64,000 nt of DNA from Vicinamibacteria bacterium. GTDB taxonomy: Bacteria > Acidobacteriota > Vicinamibacteria > Fen-336 > JAGNNV01. The notes below the pieces were generated by a model. It worked only from the letters and a program-made list of their open reading frames with translations. It was not told the DNA's origin and ran no database searches. Made by a program: the position numbers and the translations under genes. The number at the start of each line of letters is the position of its first letter. Position 1 is the first letter of the stretch. The DNA is taken from positions 6,523-70,522 of the forward strand of contig JAIBCN010000181.1 of the NCBI GenBank assembly GCA_019694155.1, given 5' to 3'. Shown piece by piece: positions 12,281 through 59,283 of this stretch.

Positions 12281-12372
12281 TGGCGGAGAGAGGGGGATTC
12301 GAACCCCCGGTGCAGGAAACCCCGCACAACAGGTTAGCAACCTGGCCCGTTCAGCCACTCCGGCATCTCTCC
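12281..12372 (-). tRNA. tRNA-Ser (anticodon GCT), class II with long variable arm, encoded CCA
   Basis: The reverse complement reads GGAGAGATGCCGGAGTGGCTGAACGGGCCAGGTTGCTAACCTGTTGTGCGGGGTTTCCTGCACCGGGGGTTCGAATCCCCCTCTCTCCGCCA. It has a 7-bp acceptor stem, a GTTCGAATC T-loop, an anticodon loop TTGCTAA, and a 19-nt variable arm. Confidence 0.85.
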
Positions 12373-44170: not shown

Positions 44171-45577
44171 CTAGCCGAGGGTCAGAGCGGACAGATCCAC
44201 GAGCCCGGTCACGGTCGGCAGGAAACCGCGCAGCCGCCACGCGTGGGCGACGCAGGCGCGGCCGTACATGAGGGGCACGAGGGGAACATCGCGCCCGAGA
44301 AGCATGCCGATTTCGCCGAGCGTCTCCTCGCGCCGCTCCTTGCGATAGGAGGCGATGAGGTCGTCCATCTCGCGGCTCCGGTAGCGCGAGAAGTTGAACG
44401 CGAAGGACGAGCCCTCGGCGCCCGAGGGCACGGCATCCGAACCGACGACCGCGGAGAGGTAGTCGCTTGGATCCGGACTGTCGGGAATGTTGCCCATGAG
44501 GGCGAGGTCGTAGTCGCCCGAGTTGACCTTCGTGATCAGTTCGCCCGACGCGACCTCCGAGGCCTCGATGATTGCGCCGAGCCTACGGAAGCGGTCGCGC
44601 AGGTGTCGGGCCACCGCGGCGGGCGCGGGGAGATAGGGGCGGGGGGCCGGGGAATAGATGATCGACATCGGCTTTTCGTAGCCGCCGGCTTCCTGCCACT
44701 CGGCGCGCGCGCGTTCGCCGTCGGGGGTGAGCCGGTCGTTGGTCTTGCCTAGGGCGGGAGGGAGAAGTCCGGTGGCTCGAAAGGCCAGGGGGTTTTCGCC
44801 GAAGGCGATCTCGGCGACGATGGTGCGGTCGACCGCCTTGGCCAGGGCGGCGCGAAGCCGCGCGTCCTTCAGCCGCTCGTTGTTGATGTAGAGCATGCAG
44901 GTCGAATTGACCGGCTTCATCACCACCGCGGTGTTCTTGAGCACGTTGACGTCCCGCCACGAAAGGCGCGGAGCGAGATCGACCTCGCCCTTCTCGAGGG
45001 CATTCAGGAGCGCGACCGGCCTTCCCGTCTGCGCATCGACGGGGTAGTGACGAACTTCTATCGACTCGATCCTGGAGGGCGTCCGCGCATGCGGATTGCG
45101 AACCAGCCGGACCACATCCTTGTCGGAGGGCCCGATCATGTACGCGCCGGTTCCAGCGAGGCCGCCCGCCGTCTCCCGATAGAGCATCCCGCACATGGTG
45201 AGGAAGAGATCGAAGCGTGTGTTGGGCGCGAACAGGGTGAGATGCACGCGCCCGTCCCGGTACGACGCCGATGCCCGACTGGTGAAGACGGGGTCGTGGG
45301 CCAGCGCCCCCACGACATCCTCGGCGGTCGCAGGCGTGCCATCGCTGAAGCGGGCGTCCCGCCGCACCGTGGTGGAGAACTTCAATCCGCCGCTTCCCGC
45401 CTCCTCGGTGAGTTTCTCCTCGAAGAGGGCGGGAGTGGCGTCACCCGCCGCCGAGGCCAGAAACGGAGTTTCGAAGATCTGGCGGGCGAGCAGAATCGTG
45501 GTCGCCTCGGCCATAGTGCGGGGATCGATCGATCCCACCGGATCGACCACTCCTATGCGGAGCACCGAGGACGCCAT
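44171..45577 (-). CDS. Solute-binding protein family 5 (peptide/nickel-type ABC substrate-binding fold); no signal peptide apparent, no adjacent permeases
   Basis: SBP_bac_5-like architecture. 468 aa. The N-terminus MASSVLRIGVVDPVGSIDP lacks a hydrophobic signal. Confidence 0.7.
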   Translation of the reverse strand: MASSVLRIGVVDPVGSIDPRTMAEATTILLARQIFETPFLASAAGDATPALFEEKLTEEAGSGGLKFSTTVRRDARFSDGTPATAEDVVGALAHDPVFTSRASASYRDGRVHLTLFAPNTRFDLFLTMCGMLYRETAGGLAGTGAYMIGPSDKDVVRLVRNPHARTPSRIESIEVRHYPVDAQTGRPVALLNALEKGEVDLAPRLSWRDVNVLKNTAVVMKPVNSTCMLYINNERLKDARLRAALAKAVDRTIVAEIAFGENPLAFRATGLLPPALGKTNDRLTPDGERARAEWQEAGGYEKPMSIIYSPAPRPYLPAPAAVARHLRDRFRRLGAIIEASEVASGELITKVNSGDYDLALMGNIPDSPDPSDYLSAVVGSDAVPSGAEGSSFAFNFSRYRSREMDDLIASYRKERREETLGEIGMLLGRDVPLVPLMYGRACVAHAWRLRGFLPTVTGLVDLSALTLG

Positions 45578-46413: not shown

Positions 46414-46634
46414 GGTGTGTCTCCTTCGCCAGCCAGGAGGAGCAACCCCCGTGCCAGGTAATGCGGGTCACATTCCGGGCCGCCGCTGTACTCGGCCGGC
46501 GACAGCAGTGTCGTCGACCGAGCGCGATCCCGGGTGCTGCATCCAAGGCTCTGAACACCGCCATGTCGGGGCCAGAAGGGCGACGAAGTGGGCGGTTGAC
46601 GCTGTCCGTGCGGTGGCCGTACCGTGCGGCCGTC

Positions 46635-47546
46635 ATGAGCTTTCACTACCTGCACCTCGACGTGTTCACACCGAAGCCACTTTCCGGCAATCAGCTCGCG
46701 GTCTTCCTCGACCCGCCACGGTGGCCGGACGAGACCATGCAGGCGATTGCCCGGGAGATTGCGTTTTCGGAGACGACGTTCGTTTACCCGCCATCGCACG
46801 ACGGGTCCCTGGCGCAGGTCCGGATCTTCACGCCCGGCGGCGAACTGCCCATGGCCGGCCATCCCACGATTGGAACCACGTTCGCTCTCGCGCTGCGCGA
46901 GCGGATCCCGCATGGCACCAAGCACGTTGTGCTCGATCTCGGCGTGGGTCCGACCCCGGTGGACCTCGAATGGGACGGCGCGGCCCGCAGACTCCGCTTC
47001 GCCTGGATGACCCAACCCCGGCCGGCCTTCGGGCCGCGGCTCGAGAATCGTGAGGAGGCGGCGCGCGCGCTCGGCCTGGAGCCCGCGGACCTGGCAGCGG
47101 ATCTCCCCGTCGAGATCGTCTCGTGCGGCGTGCCCTTCGCCTACCTGCCCCTCGTTTCCCGCCATGCCGTAGACCGGGCCCGCGTGGACCGCGCCCGGTG
47201 GCAGGGTGTATGCGCCGCGAATTCCGTCGAGGAGCACAAGATCTTCGTCTTCTCGATCGAGGAGCGGAACACGACGCCCATTCGCCTTTACAGCCGCATG
47301 TTCGCGCCCCTGATCGGCATCGCCGAGGATCCCGGCACCGGCGGCGCCTCCGGGCCGCTCGGCTCCTACCTCGTGCGCCACGGCGTTGCGTCCGGGCCGG
47401 TTTCCGATTTCCTGAGCCATCAGGGTGTCGCCATGCATCGACCCTGCGAAATCTCCATCCGGATCGCGAGCGAAGGGACGGACATCACCCGCGTTCAGAT
47501 CGGCGGCACCGCCACACTCGCGGGTGAGGCCACGCTGCGCGTCTGA
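46635..47546 (+). CDS. PhzF-family isomerase (phenazine biosynthesis-like / DAP-epimerase fold)
   Basis: LHLDVFT...GNQLAVF and E(S)ETTF motifs. 303 aa. The ATG is at 46635, inside the longer track ORF. Confidence 0.9.
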   Translation: MSFHYLHLDVFTPKPLSGNQLAVFLDPPRWPDETMQAIAREIAFSETTFVYPPSHDGSLAQVRIFTPGGELPMAGHPTIGTTFALALRERIPHGTKHVVLDLGVGPTPVDLEWDGAARRLRFAWMTQPRPAFGPRLENREEAARALGLEPADLAADLPVEIVSCGVPFAYLPLVSRHAVDRARVDRARWQGVCAANSVEEHKIFVFSIEERNTTPIRLYSRMFAPLIGIAEDPGTGGASGPLGSYLVRHGVASGPVSDFLSHQGVAMHRPCEISIRIASEGTDITRVQIGGTATLAGEATLRV

Positions 47547-47589
47547 GGCGGAACGCTTTCCCCCGCGCGTGTCCTTCGTGCCAGAGTTC

Positions 47590-48618
47590 ATGATCATGAC
47601 CAGTCCCGTGATCTCGACGGAGCCGCTTGGATTCCCCTGGGCGACCGCGGACCCCTTCCTCTTCTGCGTGCATCACAACGACGCCTACCCGGAAGGCAAC
47701 GACAAGCTCGGTCCGCGCGCTTCACTCACCGGTCGGGATATCGGTCAGGATTTCAGCGGCCGGGATGGGTGGAGCATGTATCACGGCGACGTGGTGCCGG
47801 GCTTCCCGCAGCACCCCCATCGCGGCTTCGAGACCGTGACCCTGGTCCGGAGCGGCTACATCGACCATTCCGATTCACTCGGCGCCACCGCGCGCTTCGG
47901 CCGCGGCGACGCGCAGTGGCTGACCGCGGGCGCAGGCATCGTTCACTGCGAGATGTTTCCGCTGCTCGAAGAGACAAAGCCGAACCCGGTCGAACTGTTT
48001 CAGATCTGGCTCAACCTTCCCGGCGAAGACAAGCTGGTGGCGCCCCACTTCGCCATGCTCTGGGGCGAGGACATCCCGCAGCGTGTGTTCACGGACGACG
48101 CCGGCCGCGTCACGCGGGTGACGGTGGTGGCGGGTCAACTCGACGGAAGCCGCGCGCCGTCCCCTCCTCCGAGGTCCTGGGCCTCGAGGTCCGACACCGA
48201 TGTCGCGATCTGGAGCATCCGCCTGTCAGCCGGAGCGAAGTGGATGCTTCCCTGCGCGGCCGGTTCGGCAACCGTTCGCAATCTCTACTTCTTCGCCGGC
48301 CCCTCGGTGAAGATCGGCGAGCATCAGCAAAAGTCACACGCAGGAATCGAAGTGAAGGCCTCGATCGACCTCGAGATCCAGGCCGGCGACGGAGAGTGCG
48401 AGATCCTGCTTCTGCAGGGCCGCCCTATCGGCGAGCCTGTGGCGCAATATGGACCGTTCGTCATGAACACGCGGGCGGAGATCGAGCAGGCCATCGCCGA
48501 CTACCGCCGGACTCAGTTCGGCGGATGGCCGTGGCCCGTCAACGACCCGGTCCATCCCCGGGGGGAGGGCCGCTTCGCGAAGCACGCGGATGGAGAAGTG
48601 GAACGCCGGGATCGCTGA
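47590..48618 (+). CDS. Pirin-family cupin protein
   Basis: HPHRGFETVT (HxHxxxE cupin metal site). Pirin C-terminal domain. 342 aa. Confidence 0.9.
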   Translation: MIMTSPVISTEPLGFPWATADPFLFCVHHNDAYPEGNDKLGPRASLTGRDIGQDFSGRDGWSMYHGDVVPGFPQHPHRGFETVTLVRSGYIDHSDSLGATARFGRGDAQWLTAGAGIVHCEMFPLLEETKPNPVELFQIWLNLPGEDKLVAPHFAMLWGEDIPQRVFTDDAGRVTRVTVVAGQLDGSRAPSPPPRSWASRSDTDVAIWSIRLSAGAKWMLPCAAGSATVRNLYFFAGPSVKIGEHQQKSHAGIEVKASIDLEIQAGDGECEILLLQGRPIGEPVAQYGPFVMNTRAEIEQAIADYRRTQFGGWPWPVNDPVHPRGEGRFAKHADGEVERRDR

Positions 48619-48621
48619 GCT

Positions 48622-49905
48622 TCAACCCGCCCGCTGCAGATACAACTGAAGGGTCTGGCCCGCCAGGTCCTTCGCGGAAACCGAGGCCACCGCCACCCCC
48701 GAATGCCGGAGGCGGGCCGCCATGCGCCGGTTGCCGGCGAGGATGCCAAGCGCCTCCGTCTGGGCGAAGGCGTCAATCGGGGTGCGACACTCGGCCGAAA
48801 CCAGGCGGTGCACGTCGGGATCCTCCAGGTTGATCAGGATCGGCCGGTGGCGTCTTCGGAGCATCCCGAGAGCGTTGCGCACCGCCTCCGCGGCCGCGAT
48901 GTCGACCACGGAGGTCATCAACAGAGCCACCGTCCGCCGCGAGTCGAGCGAGTCGACCGCTTCCGCGGCGAGTTCGTAGGCGGGCTCCTTCAGCGTCGCT
49001 TCCAGATCGAACAGCGCGGCGTAGGCCGCCGCCGCCCCTCGCGATCCCGGCCGCACGCGGACCGTCCGCAGAATCCGGTCAGCAAACGCGATCACGGTGA
49101 CGTGGTCCCCGCGGCCGGCCGCCACGCGAACCAGAGCGAGGGTGGCGGCGAGGGCCCAATCGAGTTTCCCCCGATCGCCATCGACGCTCGCCATCGAGCG
49201 CCCGCAGTCGAGGAGAACCGCCAGGCGCCCTCCTCGTTCCCATGCGTCTTCACGACTGATCAGGTGCCCGCGCCGCGCGGACGCCTTCCAGTGGATCTTC
49301 GTCCTCGGGTCGCCGGATCGATACTCCCGAAGGGCGTAAGGCTCGTAGCCCATTCCCCGGTCCTTGAGCGGATTCTGGCCGAGCTGCTTTCGATGGGCGA
49401 GGTTCAGAAGATGACCGACGCTTCCATCCCATCTCACCTGCGGAAGGACCCGGACTTCCTCGTCGGCCAGGAACTCCCTTTGGGTCAGGGCGAGGCCCAG
49501 CGGTCCGGGAATGCGCGCGACGAGCGGCCCCAGGGCGTGCGTCCCGCGCGTCTTCGGGGTCACCATGTAGGTCCAGGCGCCGGTTCCATCCTGGACCCGC
49601 ACGGTGGCGCGACGGGGCGCCTCCGCGACGCCCGGATGCAGGGTCTCGCGCAGTTCCACGGTCAGGTCGCGATCCCCGCGCAGGTTCACCTCGCATGAGG
49701 TCTTCGCGCCCTGAACCAGAAATCCCGACCGTGATCTCGTAGCACTCAGGACCGTTCGTCGGGCAAGAAGCAGATCCGCGCCGAAGAGGGCCAGGGCCAG
49801 AACATCGGCGCCGAGAATCGCCGCGAAGGCGCGCTCCTCGAGCACCGCGACGGAGCTCGCGAACACGAGCAGCAGTCCCGTGAGCAGCAGGCGCCTTGTG
49901 GGCAT
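48622..49905 (-). CDS. DUF58 (vWA-like) protein, MoxR partner
   Basis: Two N-terminal TMs. DUF58 core (REYRSGDPRTKIHWKASARRGHLISRE). vWA-like region LLDCGRSM. Confidence 0.85.
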   Translation of the reverse strand: MPTRRLLLTGLLLVFASSVAVLEERAFAAILGADVLALALFGADLLLARRTVLSATRSRSGFLVQGAKTSCEVNLRGDRDLTVELRETLHPGVAEAPRRATVRVQDGTGAWTYMVTPKTRGTHALGPLVARIPGPLGLALTQREFLADEEVRVLPQVRWDGSVGHLLNLAHRKQLGQNPLKDRGMGYEPYALREYRSGDPRTKIHWKASARRGHLISREDAWERGGRLAVLLDCGRSMASVDGDRGKLDWALAATLALVRVAAGRGDHVTVIAFADRILRTVRVRPGSRGAAAAYAALFDLEATLKEPAYELAAEAVDSLDSRRTVALLMTSVVDIAAAEAVRNALGMLRRRHRPILINLEDPDVHRLVSAECRTPIDAFAQTEALGILAGNRRMAARLRHSGVAVASVSAKDLAGQTLQLYLQRAG

Positions 49906-49913
49906 TTGCGGTG

Positions 49914-50873
49914 CTAGTGGGGGACGTCCACGGTCTGAATCACCCGGGCCACCGCGGCGCCCGGAGTGAGACCCTCGATCTCCGCCTCCGCGGTCAGTCG
50001 GATGCGGTGGGCCCAGACCGGAACCGCGAAGCGCTTGAGGTCATCGGGAATGAGGAAGTCGCGGTCGGCGAGAAGCGCGGAAGCGCGGCCAACTTCCAGG
50101 AGCGACAGCGCCGCTCGCGGGGAAGGCCCGATCTCGACCTGGGGCGCCTTTCTCACCGCGGCGGCCAGGCGCTGCAGATAGGCGATCGATTCCGCGGAGG
50201 CGTGCACCAGGCGCGAAGCCTCCCGCAGCGCCCTGGCCTCCTCGAGACTCGAAACCACGGTGGGGACGGCCCTTGAATCGAGGGCGCGTCCTTCAGCCGC
50301 GGCCTGCAGCATGGCGATCTCATCGCCGTCGGGCGGAAGACCCACGATCACCCGGAGCGCGAAACGATCCAGCTGCGCTTCGGGAAGGGAATACGTGCCC
50401 TCATGCTCGATGGGATTCTGGGTGGCGGCCACGAAGAACGCGGGATCCAGCACATGACTCACGCCGTCGATCGTCACCTGTTCTTCCTGCATGGCCTCGA
50501 GCAGGGCCGACTGGGTCTTCGGCGGCGTCCGGTTGATCTCATCGGCCAGAAGGAAGTGGGTGAAAACCGGCCCCCGCACCAGGTGGAAAGTGCGCGTAGA
50601 CGGGTCGAAGACGTTGGCTCCCAGCAGGTCCGCGGGCATGAGGTCGGGAGTGAGCTGCACTCGCGAGAACTGCATGCCGAGGAGCTTTGCGAGCGACCGC
50701 GCGAGCGTGGTCTTGCCCACGCCCGGCATGCCCTCGATGAGGATGTGGCCCCCGGACAGGAACCCGGCGACCATCGATTCGCAGACGTCGTGCTGGCCGA
50801 CCACGCTCTGCTCGAGGGCGTTCACGATCTCTCTCGCTCTTGCCTTCGCCCAGCCACTATCCCTTGCCGTCAT
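49914..50873 (-). CDS. MoxR-family AAA+ ATPase
   Basis: Walker A GMPGVGKT. Walker B LLADEINR. ATFNP-like sensor motif (ATQNP). 319 aa. Confidence 0.95.
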   Translation of the reverse strand: MTARDSGWAKARAREIVNALEQSVVGQHDVCESMVAGFLSGGHILIEGMPGVGKTTLARSLAKLLGMQFSRVQLTPDLMPADLLGANVFDPSTRTFHLVRGPVFTHFLLADEINRTPPKTQSALLEAMQEEQVTIDGVSHVLDPAFFVAATQNPIEHEGTYSLPEAQLDRFALRVIVGLPPDGDEIAMLQAAAEGRALDSRAVPTVVSSLEEARALREASRLVHASAESIAYLQRLAAAVRKAPQVEIGPSPRAALSLLEVGRASALLADRDFLIPDDLKRFAVPVWAHRIRLTAEAEIEGLTPGAAVARVIQTVDVPH

Positions 50874-51934
50874 TGGGTCCGCCCCTCCTTCTGTTTCGCA
50901 TGGATCCGTCGCGCGACCTCCATGAGCGCACGCGCCCCATCGGCGGTGCCCGCCGGCGGAGGCGCGACCTCGACTCCCAGCACTTCGTGGGCCCGGCTTT
51001 GAAGCGCGCGTGCCGCGTCGTGGTGGTGACCGAGTCGGTCATGAATCCCCGCAATGGTCGTGAGGAATGCGCCGGTCGCGCCGCTTGCCGGAACAGGCTC
51101 GGGCCACTCCGGGCCGAAACGGCGGCCGAGGGCCGCCACGAAGAGCCCGTAGACCAGGAGAATCTGGAAGATGAAGAGGTCCAGACCCCGGCGGGACTGG
51201 ACGCCTGAAGGTGAAGCCGCGCTCGCGACGCCATGGTGGTACTCATCGAAGGCCCACCGGCCGTCCTCGCCGAAGCGGACCCGAACCCCCTCGAGAAGCG
51301 CGCTGTTGCCCGGTTCTTTCAGTCTCCCGTTGGAGAGCGTCTCGTCGGGCAGCAGCAGGATCTCTCCGTCGCCGACCGGCCGCAGGAGCACGAGCGATTC
51401 CCCGTGCGCGTTGCGCAACAGGATCTCATCGCCCGACTCGGCGCTCGGATGTTCCCTCACCACGCCCACCGCCACCAGCGGCCCGCTACCGCCAAGGGCG
51501 ATTCGATCGGTCTTCGAAGCCTCGCCCATCCAGGCCAGCGGATTGAGGGAGCGCGGGCGCGTGGCGCTGTCTTTGAAGCTCAGGCCCAGGCGCTTGCGCA
51601 GAACCGAGGATCTGGGTCGCAGCCCATATCCAAGGACGAGCCGGCCGCCCTTTTGGACGAAACGCTCCACTTCGCCCGCTTCCGCCGTCGAGAGATCGGA
51701 GGATGTGGAGCCCGTGAGCACGAGCACATCCGTTTCCCGGAGATTCCCGGCGATCGGCGCATCGAGAGTGCGGACCTCCGACCCCATCTCCTCGATGTAC
51801 CAGCGGGCCGCGCTCCACCCTGACGAGGTGCGCGACAAGGAGCTCGCGTCGGTGGGGCCCTGCCGGCCCACGCTCAGCAGGGTGATGAGGGCGAGCGCCA
51901 TCAGGGTCCCGATCCACCAGGCGTGCCGCTTCAC
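50870..51934 (-). CDS. DUF4350-like secreted/membrane protein
   Basis: N-terminal signal/TM and a C-terminal TM. Position within the conserved MoxR operon. 4-nt overlaps on both sides. Confidence 0.65.
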   Translation of the reverse strand: MKRHAWWIGTLMALALITLLSVGRQGPTDASSLSRTSSGWSAARWYIEEMGSEVRTLDAPIAGNLRETDVLVLTGSTSSDLSTAEAGEVERFVQKGGRLVLGYGLRPRSSVLRKRLGLSFKDSATRPRSLNPLAWMGEASKTDRIALGGSGPLVAVGVVREHPSAESGDEILLRNAHGESLVLLRPVGDGEILLLPDETLSNGRLKEPGNSALLEGVRVRFGEDGRWAFDEYHHGVASAASPSGVQSRRGLDLFIFQILLVYGLFVAALGRRFGPEWPEPVPASGATGAFLTTIAGIHDRLGHHHDAARALQSRAHEVLGVEVAPPPAGTADGARALMEVARRIHAKQKEGRTQ

Positions 51935-52545
51935 ACCCGAGCCTCGAGATCCGAGAGCAACCGACGAACCTCCGGCGGCGTCGGTGTGGCCGCGCCGAAG
52001 CGGAGCCGATCCAGAACGCGCGCGGGCTCGCGCAGGTCGAGGCGCCGAGAGCGCGCGATCACGTCATGAGTGGTCAGGGCGGAGTCCGGCTGATCTTTGA
52101 GGGCGGCCGACGCGAACCACCACCAGACGGAGGAGAGGGCACCGCGTGCATCGCCCCGCTCGAGCGCGGCCAGCGCGTCCCGCCGATATTCCTGCGGCGA
52201 AAGCGCGCGCATCGCCTTTCTGGGTCGCGCCGCCTCCAGCCCCAGGGTCTGCGGCTTGTGGCGAAGGGCCCGAAGGGCTCGGACGGCAACCGCGACCACC
52301 AGGACCAGGGCAAGCGCCGCCACCAGCCACGCGAGCCAGATCTGCGCACCCGGGCCGAGGGCGTGGACGAGCGGACGGGCGACTCCGCCCAGCCACTCCG
52401 CGATTCTGTGCGCCAGCAGGTCCGCGTACTCGGACCAATCCAGCGACGGCGCCCCGGTGGATGCACCGCTGTCTCTGAACGCGTCCGCGAGCGTCTTCGG
52501 GTCGGCGGCAAGCCACTCGAACGAGGGCCGGGCGACGTCAGGCAT
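51931..52545 (-). CDS. DUF4129-like membrane protein
   Basis: Central TM (LAWLVAALALVLVVAVAV), helical C-terminal domain. An internal Met start (52545) gives an 8-nt overlap (ATGCCTGA) with the upstream gene. Confidence 0.55.
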   Translation of the reverse strand: MPDVARPSFEWLAADPKTLADAFRDSGASTGAPSLDWSEYADLLAHRIAEWLGGVARPLVHALGPGAQIWLAWLVAALALVLVVAVAVRALRALRHKPQTLGLEAARPRKAMRALSPQEYRRDALAALERGDARGALSSVWWWFASAALKDQPDSALTTHDVIARSRRLDLREPARVLDRLRFGAATPTPPEVRRLLSDLEARV

Positions 52546-53383
52546 TCCGGCCGGCGTCCAGGGCGTCGATGGCGGAATCGAGGTCCTTCGCTTCCTGACG
52601 TCCACGGATGTCGAAGTACACGACCGCGGTTCCGAGATTCCCGAGCAGCGTCATTGCCGCCTGGATGAAACTCGTCACGATGCTCGTGGGGACCTGCAGC
52701 CACTGAACGAAAGAAGAGAATTGGCCATCCCTCCGTCCGTCGGCGATGCTCCTGGCCGTTTCGACGGCCACCGCCACGATGAGCGGCAGCTGGGCGAGGC
52801 CCATGAGGAGATAGGTGGTCGCGAGCGTGACCACGAAGATCAGGAAGATCCGGAAGCGCGGATCGTTGCCGAGACCTCCCGCCGGGTTGAAGCGGGACAG
52901 TTCGTGACTTCGTGACAGCGCCGCGGAGTGCGCGAAGGTGGGTTCTTCGAACACGACCGGCAGAGCCATCGCCCAGACCAGCCCGAAGTACATGCCGGGG
53001 AGCAGGCAGAAGATGAGTCCCACGCCCACCCCCAACCCCTGCAGCATGAGCGTTCCCCACGCGCGGAACCGGAGTCCTGCCCGCCACGAATCCGCGGGCG
53101 CGGTCTCCCGGCCCGCCGCGAGCCCCACCGCCATGTGCGCGAGCGCGCCGTAGCCCACAACTCCGATCACTCCGGCCAGAATCAACGCCCCGAAGAAGAC
53201 CAGTATCAAACCCGGGTTCGTGGCCAGTTGCGTCTGAACCGCGGTCATGGCGGCGCTCAAGAGTCCCGACACCAGGGCGAGCGGCAGCAGGATACTCAGG
53301 GCGGGCCGCGCGAACTCGCGCCGAAAAAGCTCCATGGCCCTATTGAAGATCTGGCCGAGCGTGAGCCCCGATGTGATGTTCAT
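52538..53383 (-). CDS. Polytopic integral membrane protein (GP-PDE-membrane-domain-like)
   Basis: 281 aa, 6-7 TM helices. The start MNITSGL is at 53383. It is embedded in a 493-aa track ORF. Confidence 0.55.
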   Translation of the reverse strand: MNITSGLTLGQIFNRAMELFRREFARPALSILLPLALVSGLLSAAMTAVQTQLATNPGLILVFFGALILAGVIGVVGYGALAHMAVGLAAGRETAPADSWRAGLRFRAWGTLMLQGLGVGVGLIFCLLPGMYFGLVWAMALPVVFEEPTFAHSAALSRSHELSRFNPAGGLGNDPRFRIFLIFVVTLATTYLLMGLAQLPLIVAVAVETARSIADGRRDGQFSSFVQWLQVPTSIVTSFIQAAMTLLGNLGTAVVYFDIRGRQEAKDLDSAIDALDAGRNA

Positions 53384-54360
53384 GATGCTTCTCCCCTGGC
53401 GATCGGACGGAAGGCGACGAGAAGGAAGGAAGCGAGCAGCGCCGCTCCCAGAGCGACCTTGACCTCCGGGTCGACGGTTTCCGAGGGCGAGACGAATCCC
53501 TCCACCACGCCTAGGACGAGAAACCACGGCAGGATGCCGACGAGCCCGGTCATCGCGCGTCGCGCCGCCGCGCCGGCCGCGGCCTGGCGTGATCGATCGT
53601 GGGGAGCGAGCAGCGCGTGACCCATGGCCAGCCCATGGCCCGCGCTCACCAGGATCAACGTCAGCTCGAGGGGCCCATGAGCCCCGATGAATTCGAAGAG
53701 GTCGCCGCTCATGCCGAACCGGGTTGTGGTCGCGAAGACCGCTCCGAGCAGGAAGCCGTTGTTCAGCACCACGAAGATGGAACCGAGGCCAAAAAGGACA
53801 CCGCCGACCCAGGCGGTTATGGCCACCGACATGTTGTTCGTGGCGATGGCCGAGGACGACACGCTCGCGGGCACCACCCGGGAGATGCTCTCCGTCCACA
53901 GTTCTCCCCGCTCGAGATTGGTGATCGCCTCCGGTCCGAGGATCTGCGTTCCGATCGAGGGCTGAATCGTGGAGGCCGAGAACGCCATCGCGATGGAGCA
54001 GACGAACAAGACGGCGCACAGGGCCATGTGCGGCGCGTGGGCCCGCATCGCGGCCGGGAAGAGGTCTGCGAAGAAGCGCCGCAAAGAGAAGCGCTCTTTC
54101 GGGTCTTCGGCGAAAAGGAGGTGCGTGGCTTCCACGGCGAGAGCCTCCAGCCGCCGGCCGAGAGCGCTCCCGGGAAACCGCGCGCGGGCCAAAGCGTGGT
54201 CCTGAAGAATGCGCCGATAGTCCACGGCGAGCGCCTCGAGACCGTCGAAAGTCAGCGACCCGGGTGCGGCGCGCGCGCTACGCAAACGTTCCGCGAAAGA
54301 GGACCAGAAGGCCTCCCGCGACTTCGCGAAATGAATGTAGCCCTGAGCCCCTTCATGCAT
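53380..54360 (-). CDS. Stage II sporulation protein M-like (DUF95) membrane protein
   Basis: Soluble N-terminal domain, then 5-6 TMs with the characteristic GFLLG / VEGFVSP region. Confidence 0.65.
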   Translation of the reverse strand: MHEGAQGYIHFAKSREAFWSSFAERLRSARAAPGSLTFDGLEALAVDYRRILQDHALARARFPGSALGRRLEALAVEATHLLFAEDPKERFSLRRFFADLFPAAMRAHAPHMALCAVLFVCSIAMAFSASTIQPSIGTQILGPEAITNLERGELWTESISRVVPASVSSSAIATNNMSVAITAWVGGVLFGLGSIFVVLNNGFLLGAVFATTTRFGMSGDLFEFIGAHGPLELTLILVSAGHGLAMGHALLAPHDRSRQAAAGAAARRAMTGLVGILPWFLVLGVVEGFVSPSETVDPEVKVALGAALLASFLLVAFRPIARGEAS

Positions 54361-55046
54361 CGGTCACACCCAACTCGTGGCGCAGCCGTTCCACCGGATC
54401 GCGCTCGGTTACCGGGCCCAGAAAGCCCGGACTGTCTCTTCCGATGCTATCAAGCAAACGTTCGGCCAGGCCGCGCGCCCGCGCCGGCTCCATCGAGCCG
54501 CTCCGGCGCAGGAACTCCTCGGCCACCGCGATCTCCTTCGACCCCCAGTGCTGGGGCACGCGTCGCACGATCGCCTCCTTCGTGTGACCCGCGGTTTCGA
54601 GCACCAGGGTCGAGGCGAGACGATCGCCGATGCGCTGCGCCAGGGGGTGCCAGATCATGAAGGGCACGCCCACGGCCATGTCCAGGCTGCGGAAGGCGTT
54701 TCTCACCAGGATCGCCCCCTTGGACGCCTGTCCGCCCAGTCGGGTCGTGACTCGCAGGCCGAACACCCGTTTCCCCGGGGTCTGTCCCCCCATCGCGATT
54801 TCGAGTCCGACGAAGTACCCGTATTCGAGGACGAAGTAACCGAGGATGAACACCGCGATGAACCACGGTGATCGTGCGCCCGTGCTGATGACGCCCCAGA
54901 CTCCGAACACCATGATCGCGGTCACGAGGATTCCGAAGATCAGATAGTCCAGCAGGCTCGCGAGGATGCGCAGCGGAAAGGGAGCGATGGGAAGACGCAC
55001 CTCGACGTTGTCGAGGCCCAGCAGGGTTTCAGGGCGCAGATCCGAC
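54353..55046 (-). CDS. RDD-family membrane protein with C-terminal soluble extension
   Basis: RDD signature context (RILASLLDYLIFGILV...GQTPGKRVFGLRV). A non-ATG start is inferred just downstream of the ROK kinase stop (TTG at about 55046). The start is uncertain. Confidence 0.6.
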
Positions 55047-55053
55047 AAGGGCG

Positions 55054-55956
55054 TCAGGCCTTCTCCGGCCAAAGCCAGGCCGCGCCCCGGACGCCGCTCG
55101 AGTCGCCGAACTTCGGAGACAGCAATTCGGTGGTGACGCGATCCGAGAACACGTATCGGGACCACTGCGCGGGCACGTCGCGGTAAAGCCGCTCGATACT
55201 CGACAGACCGCCGCCCAGGACGATGGCGTCGGGGTCGATCACGTTGATGATGGTCGCAAGGGCGCGCGCGAGCCGGTTCACGTACCGATCGAGGCACGAC
55301 ACCGCCTCTCGCTCGCCCGCCCCGGCGCGACCCACGATCTCCACGGGCTCGGCCGGCTGACCGGTGGCCTGCTTGTAGTCGCGAGCGAGCCCGGGTCCGG
55401 AGAGGAACGTCTCGATGCAGCCGCTGCGCCCGCAGTAGCAGCTCTCGCCCGGCCATTCGCCGCTTTCCGGCCAGGGCATGGGGTTGTGCCCCCACTCTCC
55501 GCCCACCGCGTTCCGGCCATGCAGGATGCGCCCCCGCACCACCACGCCTCCGCCCGTCCCGGTTCCGAGGATGACGCCGAACACGCATTCGCGTCCCGCG
55601 GCCGCGCCGTCGCTCGCCTCCGAGAGCGCGAAGCAGTTCGCGTCGTTTTCAATTCGGAGCGGACGGCCGAGGGCGGCCAGAAGATCGCGGTCGAGGGGCC
55701 GGCCGTTCAAGCACACCGAGTTCGCATTCTTCACGAGGCCGGTCGCGGGGGAGATGATCCCCGGCATGCCCATTCCGATCGAAGCGCCCACGCCGGTCTC
55801 GCTCTCGAGGCGGCGCACCAGGTCGACGATGGCTCGCACCGTGCCGTCGTAGTCCCCCTGGGGTGTGGGCACGCGACGCCGCGCCGTGATGACGCCCGCG
55901 GCATCGAGCACGACGCCTTCGATCTTGGTTCCGCCGAGGTCGATGCCGAGTCTCAA
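55054..55956 (-). CDS. ROK-family sugar kinase (N-acetylglucosamine kinase / glucokinase-like)
   Basis: LGIDLGGTKI, GxGxGGG, and the Zn motif CYCGRSGC (CxCGxxGC). 300 aa. Confidence 0.9.
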   Translation of the reverse strand: MRLGIDLGGTKIEGVVLDAAGVITARRRVPTPQGDYDGTVRAIVDLVRRLESETGVGASIGMGMPGIISPATGLVKNANSVCLNGRPLDRDLLAALGRPLRIENDANCFALSEASDGAAAGRECVFGVILGTGTGGGVVVRGRILHGRNAVGGEWGHNPMPWPESGEWPGESCYCGRSGCIETFLSGPGLARDYKQATGQPAEPVEIVGRAGAGEREAVSCLDRYVNRLARALATIINVIDPDAIVLGGGLSSIERLYRDVPAQWSRYVFSDRVTTELLSPKFGDSSGVRGAAWLWPEKA

Positions 55957-55959
55957 GCG

Positions 55960-57054
55960 CTACACCTTGATGTGGATCTGGCGCCGGTCGAGCCACCACA
56001 AGACGGCGTACCAGCCCGCCACGTTGGCGAGGGCGAAGGCGAGGGAAGCGTTAAACGGAGTCAGCCAGGACGACAAGAGAGTCTTGTAGATGAAGACCTG
56101 GGATGAGACCGAACTCTCGCCGAGAGGGAGCTTGATGATGGCCATGGTCTTGGCCAGGAGCCCCGAGGCCACGAAGACCACGATGGCGTTGACGCCGTAG
56201 ATCACCATGGGTTTCATGGGGCTCTTGAAACCCCTCACGTCGGCGATCCAGTAGAAGCCCGCCAGCAGGAGCGAGGCGAGACCGGCGGTGAAGAGAACGT
56301 AGGAGGACGTCCACAGACTCTTGTTGATGGGGAAGACGGTATCCCACGCGATTCCCGAGACGCAAAGGATGAAGCCCGAGATCACCAGCCGCCGGATGAT
56401 TTCAGTCGCCGCGAGACCCGCCCGGAAGAGCGAACCGGCGAGATAGCCGAGGAGCGTCGTGCCCACCGCGGGGACCGAAGAGAGGAGGCCCTCCGGATCC
56501 CAGGTCTTCGAGGTGACCCACAGGTGCGGTCCGAAGATCAGACGGTCGAGCCAGGCTCCGAGATTCGTTTCCGGCTCGAGGTTCGGCGCGATGCCGCCGG
56601 GCACGGGAACCACGGTCATCAGGAACCAGTAGCCAAGGCAGCAAGCCGCGGCGATCGCCGCCACCCCGCGCAGACTGAAGTGCTTCTTGACCAGGAATGC
56701 GACGAAGTAGCACAGGGCGATCCTGGGCAGAACGCCGGGAATCCGCACAGTGAAGATGTTGAACCGCGGATAGAAGGCCATGAAGAAGCCGAGGCCGAAG
56801 ATCTTCAGGGCACGGATGGCTGCGGCCTTCGTGGTGTCGCGGGTGGAGAAGGCGAGCGAAGCCCCCACGATGAACAGGAAGAAGGGAAAGATGAGGTCGG
56901 TGGGCGTCCAGCCGTTCCACGGCGCGTGCTCGAGGGGCCAGTAGATGTGGCCCCAGTCGCCCGGGTTGTTCACCAGAATCATGGCCGCGACCGTGGCCCC
57001 GCGGAACGCATCGACCGACACCAGCCGTTCGCGAGTCATCGTGGTGTACGGCAT
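55960..57054 (-). CDS. HGSNAT-like membrane acyltransferase (DUF1624/DUF5009; heparan-alpha-glucosaminide N-acetyltransferase catalytic-domain-like)
   Basis: N-terminal RxxSVDxxRG motif (RLVSVDAFRGATV). About 10 TMs. Adjacent to the ROK kinase. Confidence 0.65.
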   Translation of the reverse strand: MPYTTMTRERLVSVDAFRGATVAAMILVNNPGDWGHIYWPLEHAPWNGWTPTDLIFPFFLFIVGASLAFSTRDTTKAAAIRALKIFGLGFFMAFYPRFNIFTVRIPGVLPRIALCYFVAFLVKKHFSLRGVAAIAAACCLGYWFLMTVVPVPGGIAPNLEPETNLGAWLDRLIFGPHLWVTSKTWDPEGLLSSVPAVGTTLLGYLAGSLFRAGLAATEIIRRLVISGFILCVSGIAWDTVFPINKSLWTSSYVLFTAGLASLLLAGFYWIADVRGFKSPMKPMVIYGVNAIVVFVASGLLAKTMAIIKLPLGESSVSSQVFIYKTLLSSWLTPFNASLAFALANVAGWYAVLWWLDRRQIHIKV

Positions 57055-57055
57055 C

Positions 57056-58354
57056 CTACAAGCGGATGAGGCGGTCCTTCAGGCTGGGGTAGTCGGGCTC
57101 CAGGATTTCGCTCGCAGCCGGGCGCGCGAGCATGGCTCGAAGCGCGGGCGGGGGCTCGACCTCATGACCGACCAGCGGTTCCACCACGTCCTCGAACTTG
57201 GAAGGATGAGCGGTGGCCACGACACAGAAGTCATCCTTCGATCCGCCCCGCCGCTCGTGCTCGAGCATCTCGATCCCGCAGGCGGTGTGAGGGCAGAAGA
57301 CCTTGCCGTAGTCCGCTTCGCCCGACTTGATGCGCGCGCGGATGGTCTCGTCATCGACCGACAGAGCGCTCAAAGCGGCGTGGAGCGCGGGGTCCTTCGC
57401 CATCATGAAGCGCAGGCGCGCCACGTTCGAGGGGTCGCCCACATCCATGGCGTTCGCGAGGGTGGCGACACTCGGCCGGGCATGATATTCGCCGGTCTCC
57501 ACGAACTCCGGCACCGTCCGGTTTCGGTTCGTCGCGAACAGCACGCGGTGGATGGGCAGGCCCGCCCCCTTCGCGATGAGGGCGGCCACCGCGTTGCCGA
57601 GGTTCCCGGTCGGCACGATGAAGGAAAGGGACCGGCCGGTGGCGCGATGATGAAGCAGCGAGGCGAAGGCGTAGTACGTCGCCTGCGGCAGCAGACGACC
57701 CAGGCTGATGCTGTTCGCGGAGGAGAGAGGCACCCTCGCGCGCAGATCGGAATCCGAGAAGGCCTGCTTCGCGAGGGCCTGACACTGATCGAAGCCCGCG
57801 GGCACGCGCAGGGCGAGGACGTTGTCGCCGAAGCAACCGAGTTGATGGGCCTGTCGCTTCGAAACCCGGCCGTCCGGGTAGAGGATGACCACGCGAAAGC
57901 CCGGCATGCGATGAAACGCGGCGGCCACCGCTGACCCGGTGTCTCCCGAAGTCGCGACCAGAATGGTGAGAGGCGTCTCGCCCGCCTCCGTTCCGCGGAG
58001 CCGGCCCAGCGTGTTCGCGAGGAAGCGTGCGCCGTAGTCCTTGAAGGCCGCCGTTGGACCGTGAAACAGCTCGAGGAGGTACGAGCTCTCCGCAAGGGAA
58101 ACGAGGGGCGTCTCGATGTCGAGACTCAGATCGCAGATGAGTCTCAGATCGTCGTGCAGGATATCGCCTTCGAAGAAAGGTCTCAGGAAGACCCGGGCCA
58201 CCTGAGGGAGGGTGGTGCACGCATCGAACCGGCGGAACGGCGAAGCTTCGATCCGATCGGGAAAGTACAGGCCGCCGTCCGGAGCCAGGCCCGCGAGGAG
58301 CGCGGTCGAAAGACCCGCCGGGTCCGCGCGTCCGTTGGTGCTGATGAACTTCAT
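57056..58354 (-). CDS. thrC: Threonine synthase
   Basis: PLP-Lys motif FKDYG (FKDxG) and overall ThrC architecture. 432 aa. Confidence 0.95.
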   Translation of the reverse strand: MKFISTNGRADPAGLSTALLAGLAPDGGLYFPDRIEASPFRRFDACTTLPQVARVFLRPFFEGDILHDDLRLICDLSLDIETPLVSLAESSYLLELFHGPTAAFKDYGARFLANTLGRLRGTEAGETPLTILVATSGDTGSAVAAAFHRMPGFRVVILYPDGRVSKRQAHQLGCFGDNVLALRVPAGFDQCQALAKQAFSDSDLRARVPLSSANSISLGRLLPQATYYAFASLLHHRATGRSLSFIVPTGNLGNAVAALIAKGAGLPIHRVLFATNRNRTVPEFVETGEYHARPSVATLANAMDVGDPSNVARLRFMMAKDPALHAALSALSVDDETIRARIKSGEADYGKVFCPHTACGIEMLEHERRGGSKDDFCVVATAHPSKFEDVVEPLVGHEVEPPPALRAMLARPAASEILEPDYPSLKDRLIRL

Positions 58355-59283
58355 GCGATCACCGAGGCCTTCGGCCCGTCGACCGGAGAAATGTAGACGT
58401 CGGAGTCGAAGCCCGCGCGACCGAAGGCCCTCTGCATCGACGGCGCCGAGCGTTCGGCGGTTCCCCGGTCCGCGAACCAGGCGAACACACTCGGGCCCCC
58501 GCCCGAGATCGAAGCGCCGAGGGCGCCCTCATCCATCGCAGCGTCCTTGACACCCTTGAAGCCGGGGATGAGATGCGCGCGACGCGGTTCCACCAGGACG
58601 TCCCTCAGACCGGCCCGGAGCGAATCGGGATTTCCGGTGAAGAGGCCCACCAGCATCTGCGCGAGTCCGGCGCTTTGGGGCACGAAGTCCGAGATCGCGT
58701 AGGGCATCACGAGGGCTTCGCGCGCCGTTCGTGTTTCGAGCACGAGATGCGGATGGACGACGACGCACGTGAGGCCTTTGGGCACGGGCAGCCGGATGAG
58801 ACGATCCTCGGTCGCGAGCGCGAGTCCTCCGATCAGCATCGGGCCCACGTTGTCGCCATGGCGGCCGCCGCTCGCCGCCGCCTCGCCTTCGAGGGCGAAT
58901 GGATAGAGCTCGGACGCGCGCAGGGGCGTCTCGAGCAGCGCGTTCGCGGCGACGAGAGCCGCGACCGCCGAGGCCGCGGATCCTCCCATTCCCGAGCCGA
59001 GCGGAATCCCCTTCACCACGTCGACTTCGAACCCGAAAGGAAGCCGATGCGCGATCCGGAGCGCGTCGAGAGCCCGCAGCGCCGTGTTCTGTGCGACCTC
59101 AGGAGGAAGTTCCGTGAGGACGCCGGTCACCGATCGCAGTCGCACTTCACCGTCCTCGATCCGCTCCACGCGAACACGGTCCTTCGGACCCTCGAGGGTG
59201 TGGCCGAGGACATCGAAGCCGGTGGCGACGTTGCCGACCGAAGACGGGGCTTCGGCGGTCGCGATGAGAGCGGGATCGGGCAC
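58351..59283 (-). CDS. thrB: Homoserine kinase (GHMP family)
   Basis: GHMP motif PLGSGMGGSAASAVA. 4-nt overlap with thrC. Confidence 0.9.
   Translation of the reverse strand: MPDPALIATAEAPSSVGNVATGFDVLGHTLEGPKDRVRVERIEDGEVRLRSVTGVLTELPPEVAQNTALRALDALRIAHRLPFGFEVDVVKGIPLGSGMGGSAASAVAALVAANALLETPLRASELYPFALEGEAAASGGRHGDNVGPMLIGGLALATEDRLIRLPVPKGLTCVVVHPHLVLETRTAREALVMPYAISDFVPQSAGLAQMLVGLFTGNPDSLRAGLRDVLVEPRRAHLIPGFKGVKDAAMDEGALGASISGGGPSVFAWFADRGTAERSAPSMQRAFGRAGFDSDVYISPVDGPKASVIA

Follow-up and report, generated by a model that had tools for sequence, protein, structure and literature searches.

The window analysed here is a 64,000-nucleotide (nt) stretch of contig JAIBCN010000181.1 from a Vicinamibacteria bacterium of the phylum Acidobacteriota. 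Its positions 48622-55048 hold a seven-gene operon that encodes a MoxR ATPase, a DUF58 partner and five further membrane proteins. The genes are numbered g1 to g7 in the direction of transcription: RDD, SpoIIM-like, a polytopic membrane protein, a divergent DUF4129 protein, DUF4350, MoxR and DUF58. The seven genes are inherited together. By analogy with better-known MoxR systems, we favour on balance the reading that the locus is a chromosomal, housekeeping-type, membrane-anchored MoxR/vWA remodelling module, encoded side by side with its own client envelope complex.

MoxR/vWA pairs are among the most widespread prokaryotic AAA+ systems, and only a handful of them have a known client. The locus is a new copy of a gene neighbourhood that was partly described in 2015, is annotated in mycobacteria and is functionally uncharacterised. 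A literature search found no paper that assigns a function to the cluster, which bears out the statement in an earlier, sequence-only reading of this stretch that no function has been established. New here are the exact seven-gene boundary, which leaves out the upstream housekeeping genes, an RDD-SpoIIM fusion, a degenerate metal ion-dependent adhesion site (MIDAS), the histidine motifs of g5 and a putatively HEPN-like, non-catalytic helical bundle in g4. Across an entire phylum of bacteria that abound in soil, the seven-gene version is strictly conserved. Knowledge of its function would give an annotation to thousands of genes that are at present called 'hypothetical' or 'DUF' and could reveal an envelope function relevant to mycobacterial physiology. 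The conserved motifs make targeted mutagenesis possible, and the window supplies a clean example of the operon.

Seven co-directional open reading frames (ORFs) span 48622-55048 of the minus strand, in a region of 66-70% G+C. The first, g1 (RDD, 54353-55048, 231 amino acids (aa)), begins with a TTG codon 5 nt past the stop codon of a ROK kinase gene. It is followed by g2 (SpoIIM-like, DUF95/COG1300, 53380-54360, 326 aa), g3 (polytopic membrane protein, 52538-53383, 281 aa), g4 (single-pass, divergent DUF4129 protein, 51931-52545, 204 aa), g5 (DUF4350, 50870-51934, 354 aa, with a GTG start), g6 (MoxR, 49914-50873, 319 aa) and g7 (DUF58, 48622-49905, 427 aa). Start codons were picked from a list of candidates and then compared with those of orthologs. 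The orthologs of g3 begin with MN(I/V/M)TSGLTLGQ, those of g4 begin with MP(D/S) and are 203-204 aa long, and the RDD ortholog of locus L004 is also called at 231 aa. The single chain of seven minus-strand genes proposed in the sequence-only reading is present as claimed, and its end coordinate was given as 55046 rather than 55048.

Read from the sequence, the genes overlap by 8 nt at g1/g2 (ATGCATGA), by 4 nt at g2/g3 (ATGA), by 8 nt at g3/g4 (ATGCCTGA, exactly as had been quoted for this junction), by 4 nt at g4/g5 (GTGA) and by 4 nt at g5/g6 (ATGA). Start/stop overlaps of 4 to 8 nt had been claimed throughout the chain. They occur at these five of the six junctions but not between MoxR and DUF58, where a TAG stop codon, an 8-nt spacer and an ATG codon follow one another. 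Hydropathy predicts transmembrane (TM) segments in six of the seven proteins, with MoxR as the sole soluble member, so that the count of five membrane proteins given previously was too low. An operon-like chain of co-encoded membrane proteins around the MoxR/DUF58 pair is therefore supported.

Conservation within Acidobacteriota was followed with a motif-anchored scan of one genome per species, which retrieved 80 loci. Its query was a 22-sequence subset sharing the g5 motif FDEYHHG, a choice that biased retrieval toward Acidobacteriota, and all 80 loci belong to this phylum (Vicinamibacteria, Thermoanaerobaculia, Holophagales and others). Profiles made from the window proteins were then searched against all ORFs of 85 loci and found g1 in 73, g2 in 73, g3 in 77, g4 in 81, g5 in 83, g6 in 84 and g7 in 79 of them. 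The sequence-only reading had put forward a neighbourhood analysis in this phylum as a check. In 68 of 83 loci, the seven genes stand in the order g1 to g7 on one strand. The other 15 loci hold fewer of the genes but never in a different order, as would be expected if contigs end within the cluster. These 83 loci include at least 81 from Acidobacteriota and cover 80 different species. Genes were ordered by their stop codons, because ordering by ORF starts gave spurious swaps caused by over-extended ORFs in high-GC DNA. Median identities to the window proteins are only 22-55%. Such low identity combined with a kept gene order points to conservation under divergence rather than to recent common descent.

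The junctions are conserved to different degrees, as far as approximate start assignments allow them to be compared. A 4-nt overlap of g4 and g5 is found in 66 of 81 loci, and this is the only junction that keeps a 4-nt overlap in most loci. A 4-nt overlap of g5 and g6 is seen in 37 of 82 loci and a 1-nt overlap of g1 and g2 in 32 of 72, with the other junctions varying. Short gene overlaps are common in high-GC operons. The earlier inference that tight translational coupling implies stoichiometric assembly is overstated. DUF58 lies directly downstream of moxR in 78 loci.

The limits of the conserved unit are also visible in these comparisons. Upstream of g1 in the window stand genes for a ROK kinase, an HGSNAT-like acyltransferase, ThrC and ThrB. 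This block is found in only three of the 85 loci, namely the window and its close relatives L003 and L004. In locus L088, a divergent gene precedes the seven and a convergent gene comes after them. The conserved unit consists of these seven genes, with the ROK-to-ThrB block as a local neighbour. The coordinates of the earlier reading take the seven genes as the whole unit, but in this genome four co-directional upstream genes adjoin them.

Gene tables compiled from precomputed Pfam matches extend the comparison to other phyla. A core consisting of a g3-like protein, DUF4129, DUF4350, MoxR and DUF58 is present in the Chloroflexota locus L085, in the Gemmatimonadota locus L086 and in locus L001. 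The genes of L085 are labelled GPDPase_memb, DUF4129, DUF4350, MoxR and DUF58. Those of L086, from Longimicrobiales, are labelled DUF7847, DUF4129, DUF4350, MoxR and DUF58 and are accompanied by a convergent RDD/SpoIIM gene. In L001, which comes from an NCBI MAG, some 4 kb separate SpoIIM and RDD from the five-gene core. A variant from Pyrinomonadaceae, L087 (6816-13385), has a TauE/SafE-type gene between DUF4350 and MoxR and an ankyrin-repeat gene in the DUF58 position. The g3 profile from the window matches the equivalent genes of L001, L085 and L087. The examined parts of L085 and L087 have no record of an RDD or SpoIIM family.

The convergent gene of L086 (12364-14166) encodes a 600-aa protein with RDD, DUF8413 and SpoIIM regions and faces the DUF58 gene. 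Profiles from the window match it in two separate segments, g1 over residues 16-233 (E 3e-32) and g2 over residues 280-583 (E 8e-44), and it is therefore a true fusion. The existence of this RDD-SpoIIM fusion argues that g1 and g2 act together physically.

A related set is annotated in mycobacteria. In RNA-seq data from M. chelonae, genes for DUF58, MoxR, SpoIIM, RDD, DUF4350 and a membrane protein are jointly down 6- to 8-fold, and these are orthologs, in the same order, of Rv3693, Rv3692, Rv3694c, Rv3695, Rv3691 and Rv3689 (PMC8191103). In M. tuberculosis, the set corresponds by published annotation to Rv3689-Rv3695. The families annotated for Rv3689-Rv3695 (in which Rv3692 is MoxR2) and for M. 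chelonae BB28_RS01875-01900 plus BB28_RS24340 match those of the window. As compared by published annotation, the mycobacterial cluster is unlike the window in that its SpoIIM gene lies on the opposite strand. Rv3690 is not in the published table (PMC8191103), so no DUF4129 equivalent is assigned there. Two of the mycobacterial proteins, Rv3694c and Rv3695, were found to purify together with Rv0954, which is associated with the divisome (PMC8093794). The statement that the gene set recurs across phyla holds for Acidobacteriota, Chloroflexota (L085) and Gemmatimonadota (L086), and for Mycobacterium by published annotation (PMC8191103).

These patterns bear on an alternative in which there is no single machine. 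MoxR, DUF58 and DUF4350 would form one unit, and the RDD, SpoIIM-like, g3 and g4 proteins would be unrelated passengers kept in place by operon packing. The RDD and SpoIIM genes are on the other strand or several kilobases off in L001 and L086, and they have no record in L085 and L087; the L087 variant shows that outer members can be lost. Overlapping junctions of the kind seen here are ordinary in high-GC operons, and housekeeping genes also adjoin the cluster in the window. However, equivalents of both g3 and g4 precede DUF4350 in each phylum examined. RDD and SpoIIM genes stay within a few kilobases of the core in L001, L086 and, by published annotation, mycobacteria, and the two are fused in L086. 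Unrelated upstream genes are lost beyond close relatives, whereas the seven genes are kept. With this evidence in hand, mere packing of unrelated genes seems unlikely.

The favoured reading of a remodelling module starts from its ATPase. Matches to Pfam families were judged against the curated cut-offs. g6 scores 206.8 bits with AAA_3 (E 1.2e-61, cut-off 27) and 66.9 bits with AAA_lid_2 (E 1.3e-18, cut-off 22.7). It carries the motifs GMPGVGKT at 48, LLADE at 108, ATQNP at 150, LDRF at 168 and SPRAAL at 251, and these are at least 90% conserved in 81 orthologs. We take GMPGVGKT to be the Walker A motif, LLADE to be Walker B, ATQNP to be sensor-1, and LDRF and SPRAAL to supply the arginine finger and sensor-2. 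In a sequence search of the PDB, the closest solved structure is the Cytophaga MoxR protein 2r44 (E 1.5e-64). As judged from these matches and motifs, g6 is a MoxR-type AAA+ ATPase whose catalytic motifs are all intact. NCBIfam gives no family-level match for the six other proteins, and for MoxR it gives only a generic AAA match below the cut-off.

The presumed partner of the ATPase, g7, is a DUF58 protein (PF01882, E 1.1e-17, 64.4 bits against a cut-off of 23.4). Hydropathy shows a two-helix TM hairpin with basic flanks at its N terminus, and its body is predicted to be cytoplasmic. The DUF58 signature REY..GDP..kIHWKA.AR is conserved. Two aspartates, D233 in LLDC and D335 in TSVVD, are at least 90% conserved, and the pattern of the sequence is the only basis for placing them at strands 1 and 4. 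Two conserved aspartates that end strands 1 and 4 are the published criterion for a vWA metal site (PMC7159879). A sequence search of the PDB returned no relative of g7.

Next to the ATPase gene on its other side is g5, a DUF4350 protein (PF14258, E 3.7e-12, 47.3 bits against a cut-off of 30.4). Hydropathy places TM helices at residues 5-23, as an N-terminal signal or anchor, and at 251-269, and the DUF4350 domain between them is predicted to be periplasmic. This architecture of an anchor helix and a C-proximal TM helix agrees with the description of archaeal arCOG01314 proteins (PMC5898192). An invariant motif, W-x-FDEYHHG (residues 227-235, with FDEYHHG at 229-235), lies just ahead of the second helix. 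The tail beyond that helix has 85 residues, is predicted to be cytoplasmic and carries RRFGP at 271, directly after the helix, and HDRLGHH at 298 (298-304). In this DUF4350 subfamily, both W-x-FDEYHHG and H-x-RLGHH vary little or not at all, and they sit on opposite sides of the predicted membrane span. The paired motifs could be a metal or catalytic site. The DUF4350 family is large, with 571 representatives at E<=1e-3 in a library clustered at 50%. Its domain is described in the literature as GldG/GIFT-like. Searches of PDB sequences gave only non-significant IFT52/GIFT matches (E 0.37-0.9), which are not evidence alone but are in line with the published GldG link.

The protein that precedes DUF4350, g4, has a single TM helix at about residues 67-95, a basic stretch and a C-terminal four-helix bundle (117-203). 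Its AlphaFold2 model has a mean predicted local distance difference test (pLDDT) score of 71, and the bundle has block means of about 85-95. The window copy does not match DUF4129 (PF13559) from either candidate start, even at E<=10. The family is matched by three of the six sequences (best E 4.5e-5) in an alignment of the window copy with five orthologs of 54-95% identity. In L085, L086 (weakly) and L087, the gene that precedes DUF4350 carries PF13559; a g4 profile from the window does not reach these proteins. Because of the ortholog matches, and because DUF4129 occupies the same position in three distant loci, g4 is treated as a divergent DUF4129 protein. The sequence-only reading had offered its domain calls for test by hidden Markov model search. 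RDD, SpoIIM, DUF4350, MoxR and DUF58 are confirmed in this way, and DUF4129 is found in orthologs but not in the window copy of g4.

Structural comparison of the g4 bundle gives HEPN-fold proteins as its best matches. The bundle lacks the catalytic Rx4-6H motif: g4 has a single R-x(4-6)-H sequence, at 89-96, which is juxtamembrane, lies outside the bundle and is unconserved. Going by the model, the bundle would be at most a non-catalytic HEPN-like fold.

The first three genes encode the polytopic proteins of the set. g1 is an RDD protein (PF06271, E 9.6e-15, 55.5 bits against a cut-off of 24.1). It has two to three predicted TM segments, and its last 85 aa or so are conserved and soluble. g2 is a SpoIIM protein (PF01944, E 2e-26, 93.3 bits against a cut-off of 26.9). 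Its soluble N-terminal region of about 110 aa, which is labelled DUF8413 in orthologs, is followed by about five to six TM segments, and the motifs IATNN, AHGpLE and PWf..L..VE are conserved. Both PF28475 and PF01944 are recorded on the g2 orthologs of L004, L088 and L089.

The window copy of g3 is 100% identical to a protein from a Vicinamibacteria MAG and has no Pfam match. A weak match to PF10110 (GPDPase_memb) occurs in four of 14 orthologs, and the equivalents in other loci carry weak GPDPase_memb or weak DUF7847 labels. g3 may be a distant relative of the GPDPase_memb/DUF975/DUF7847 group. Its AlphaFold2 model is all-helical (mean pLDDT 80.6), and a Foldseek search of this fold against the PDB found nothing significant (best E 0.18, TM-scores <=0.34). 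The transporter-like resemblance of the model may be taken only as a lead.

A mechanism for the proposed remodelling module can be drawn from the NorQ/NorD pair. There, a finger of the vWA protein is held in the pore of the MoxR hexamer, and the linker of the partner is remodelled by twisting and stretching (PMC9976466, PMC13036017). The authors of these studies argue that the pore-finger mechanism is general for MoxR/VWA pairs (PMC9976466, PMC13036017). Positively charged residues follow the DUF58 hairpin, the TM helix of g4 and the second TM helix of g5. From this pattern, a location in the cytoplasm together with MoxR is predicted for the body of DUF58, the bundle of g4 and the tail of g5.

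Alongside domain identities, motifs, co-inheritance and gene fusion that are directly observed, we infer the physical contacts, the direction of force and the biological output as follows. By analogy with NorQ/NorD, a cytoplasmic MoxR hexamer would dock on the vWA-like body of DUF58, which its hairpin would tether to the cytoplasmic side of the membrane. Hydrolysis of ATP would pull or twist a segment of DUF58. The force would pass to the cytoplasmic helical bundle of g4 and to the histidine-rich tail of g5, and the TM helices of these two proteins would relay it to the periplasmic DUF4350 domain and to the polytopic g3, SpoIIM-like and RDD proteins. In this way, an envelope complex would be assembled, matured or gated at the expense of ATP. 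The most likely job of that complex is envelope remodelling or transport/secretion. The precedent of SpoIIM as a scaffold for wall hydrolases, and the association of Rv3694c and Rv3695 with Rv0954, are weak hints of a role in the envelope or in division.

Several observations weigh against the interpretation as a remodelling module. The VWA_2 match of g7 (E 1.2e-4, 23.1 bits) is below its cut-off of 27. The MIDAS of g7 is degenerate, with D233-C-G-R-S in place of the canonical DxSxS, and both of its serine positions are less than 60% conserved among 76 orthologs. Metal-mediated client binding of the CbbO/NorD type therefore may not apply. The topology assigned to these proteins is based on hydropathy and the positive-inside rule only, and the published archaeal model puts the vWA protein outside the cell (PMC5898192), contrary to the cytoplasmic prediction made here. 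L087 lacks DUF58 at its position as well as RDD and SpoIIM, and the composition of the cluster is not fixed.

A bolder version of the remodelling-module reading is possible, though we hold it to be doubtful. All seven proteins would constitute one ATP-driven trans-membrane machine that is shared from Acidobacteria to Mycobacterium tuberculosis. MoxR and DUF58 would actuate the g4 and g5 relays, and these would open or assemble a channel or scaffold made of RDD, SpoIIM and g3. If true, such a machine would represent a novel type of envelope system that serves export or the remodelling of the cell wall, and not a chaperone for an unlinked client.

The histidine motifs of g5 allow a different account based on metal handling. 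The MoxR/vWA pair would drive metal insertion or trafficking as in NorQD, CoxDE and the Mg/Co chelatases, with the g5 histidines as ligands and the polytopic proteins as a conduit. Characterised MoxR/VWA pairs often insert metals (PMC13036017, PMC9976466), and g5 offers W-x-FDEYHHG beside the membrane and the histidines of its tail motif at near-invariant positions. Genes that could fit this account occur in some neighbourhoods. In 33 loci, a CDF cation-efflux gene lies downstream of the cluster in the same orientation. L086 has a P-type HMA ATPase gene 1.4 kb upstream of the block, beyond an oppositely oriented aminotransferase gene, and in L087 a TauE gene is inserted. One further hint, that a Geobacter DUF4350 gene responds to cobalt (PMC7726332), comes from one entry in a transcriptome table. 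The cluster has no conserved neighbour that encodes a metalloenzyme client, and the MIDAS serines of g7 are unconserved. Linkage to CDF occurs in Thermoanaerobaculia only, not in the window or in other phyla, and may be no more than lineage synteny. Metal handling is a distinctly unlikely explanation for the whole set.

Least probable by far is a conflict or defence system akin to the MoxR-vWA ternary systems, in which the ATPase would license a membrane-damaging or nuclease effector upon infection. Those systems share the MoxR and vWA core with the window and have additional conserved partners (Kaur, Burroughs, Iyer and Aravind 2020, PMC7159879). Several of the membrane proteins could in principle be pore-forming effectors, and g6 marginally matches bpMoxR (PF20030, 29.7 bits against a cut-off of 27). 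Its AAA_3 score is seven times higher. Pfam finds none of the VMAP, iSTAND, FtsH-like, beta-propeller, effector-associated and effector domains of the ternary systems in the seven proteins. PADLOC has no match for six of them and only a P-loop-level match for MoxR, and the HEPN-like bundle of g4 is without Rx4-6H. A tblastn search with g5 against plasmid and phage collections gave no match. Defence islands are typically patchy and variable, whereas order and content are invariant in 68 loci here, and the set is vertically stable. The link to ternary conflict systems suggested in the sequence-only reading finds no support: a third component or effector is missing, the PADLOC match is generic, g5 is not found on plasmids or phages, and the chromosomal synteny is stable.

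The remodelling module can also be compared with systems described previously. One of these was published by Makarova, Galperin and Koonin in 2015, who predicted that archaeal arCOG01314 (DUF4350)-MoxR-vWA sets form a secretion or membrane-remodelling system and noted bacterial SpoIIM homologs beside genes for vWA proteins and COG0714 ATPases (PMC5898192). The archaeal sets share with the window the triad of a membrane-anchored DUF4350 protein, a COG0714 MoxR ATPase and a vWA protein. Unlike the window, they also include Ig-like and S-layer-type proteins (arCOG02884 and others), and as described they lack RDD, g3 and DUF4129. Their vWA protein is predicted to be secreted, whereas the body of the window protein is predicted to be cytoplasmic.

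The NorQ/NorD, CbbQ/CbbO and RavA/ViaA systems resemble the window in having a MoxR-type ATPase with intact motifs next to a vWA partner. Following the classification of Snider and Houry, we take NorQ, CbbQ and RavA to belong to other MoxR subfamilies than g6. The partners NorD, CbbO and ViaA are soluble and have a canonical MIDAS, whereas the DUF58 protein of the window is membrane-anchored and its MIDAS is degenerate. Known clients of these pairs are cNOR, Rubisco and respiratory complexes. RavA-ViaA also acts at the inner membrane (PMC9489729).

Bat (Bacteroides aerotolerance) operons, for example Borrelia BB0170-BB0176, place MoxR beside membrane-anchored vWA proteins (PMC5700661). They carry the extra vWA proteins BatA/B and the TPR protein BatC and are without DUF4350, DUF4129, SpoIIM and RDD. 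The DUF58 gene of Bat operons directly follows moxR, and these operons are linked to envelope or stress phenotypes.

The SpoIIM-like protein g2 shares its Pfam family with Bacillus SpoIIM, which acts in engulfment in a complex with SpoIID and SpoIIP. SpoIIM provides a scaffold in the membrane for enzymes that remodel the envelope. Compared with the Bacillus protein, g2 carries the extra N-terminal DUF8413 region. Neither SpoIID nor SpoIIP is among the Pfam families at L001-L004, at L085-L089 or among the neighbours in the window, the genomes beyond these loci being unsearched. The organism of the window is presumably not a spore-former.

On the minus strand upstream of g1, the window encodes the ROK kinase (55054-55956), the HGSNAT-like membrane acyltransferase (55960-57054), threonine synthase ThrC (57056-58354) and homoserine kinase ThrB (58351-59283). 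From ThrB to g1, the genes run head-to-tail with gaps of at most 5 nt or a short overlap. The transcript in this genome may be longer than the seven genes and perhaps starts upstream of thrB. Downstream, a pirin gene (47425-48618) is convergent to g7, with the two stop codons 3 nt apart. It is followed by a PhzF-like gene on the plus strand (46461-47546) and by an SBP_bac_5 solute-binding protein gene on the minus strand (44171-45577).

A scan of 47.5-57.5 kb for sigma-70 promoters gave zero matches. Inside the operon there are nine terminator-like hairpins where 5.2±2.3 are expected. The two strongest, at 53428-53449 and 53800-53817 of the minus strand, are GC-rich, have free energies of -11.5 and -10.1 kcal/mol and T-rich but interrupted tails and lie within the coding sequence of g2. 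They are not regarded as terminators, although they might act in attenuation. Nothing argues for a split operon, but promoter and terminator scans of this kind are weak tests.

Genes for sigma-54-type enhancer-binding proteins occur near the cluster in L004 (12831-14243), L086 (14446-15381) and L087 (1189-2598), and none lies next to it in the window. In L004, a sigma-54 response regulator gene stands between DUF58 and pirin, a position that is without such a gene in the window. Control by sigma-54 was dropped as a candidate because a scan for -24/-12 elements in the 300 nt upstream of g1, made in 69 loci, performed no better than intragenic controls.

In Thermoanaerobaculia, 30 loci have a gene for a secreted Laminin_G_3 protein some 90-150 nt past DUF58, and the CDF cation-efflux gene comes next on the same strand. 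Examples are L033 (13482-14573), L089 (13606-14703) and L080 (15183-16082). The Laminin_G_3 and CDF genes were rejected as parts of the system, since neither the window nor the other phyla have them, and the linkage is probably synteny of this lineage. Further downstream in L089 (15184-17943), and in this one locus only, are a PspA/IM30 gene and an AAA ATPase gene, a pair that could be a membrane-stress module. Elsewhere in the window, a tRNA-Ser(GCT) gene on the minus strand (12281-12372) is the only RNA gene that Rfam and ARAGORN identify in the 64 kb.

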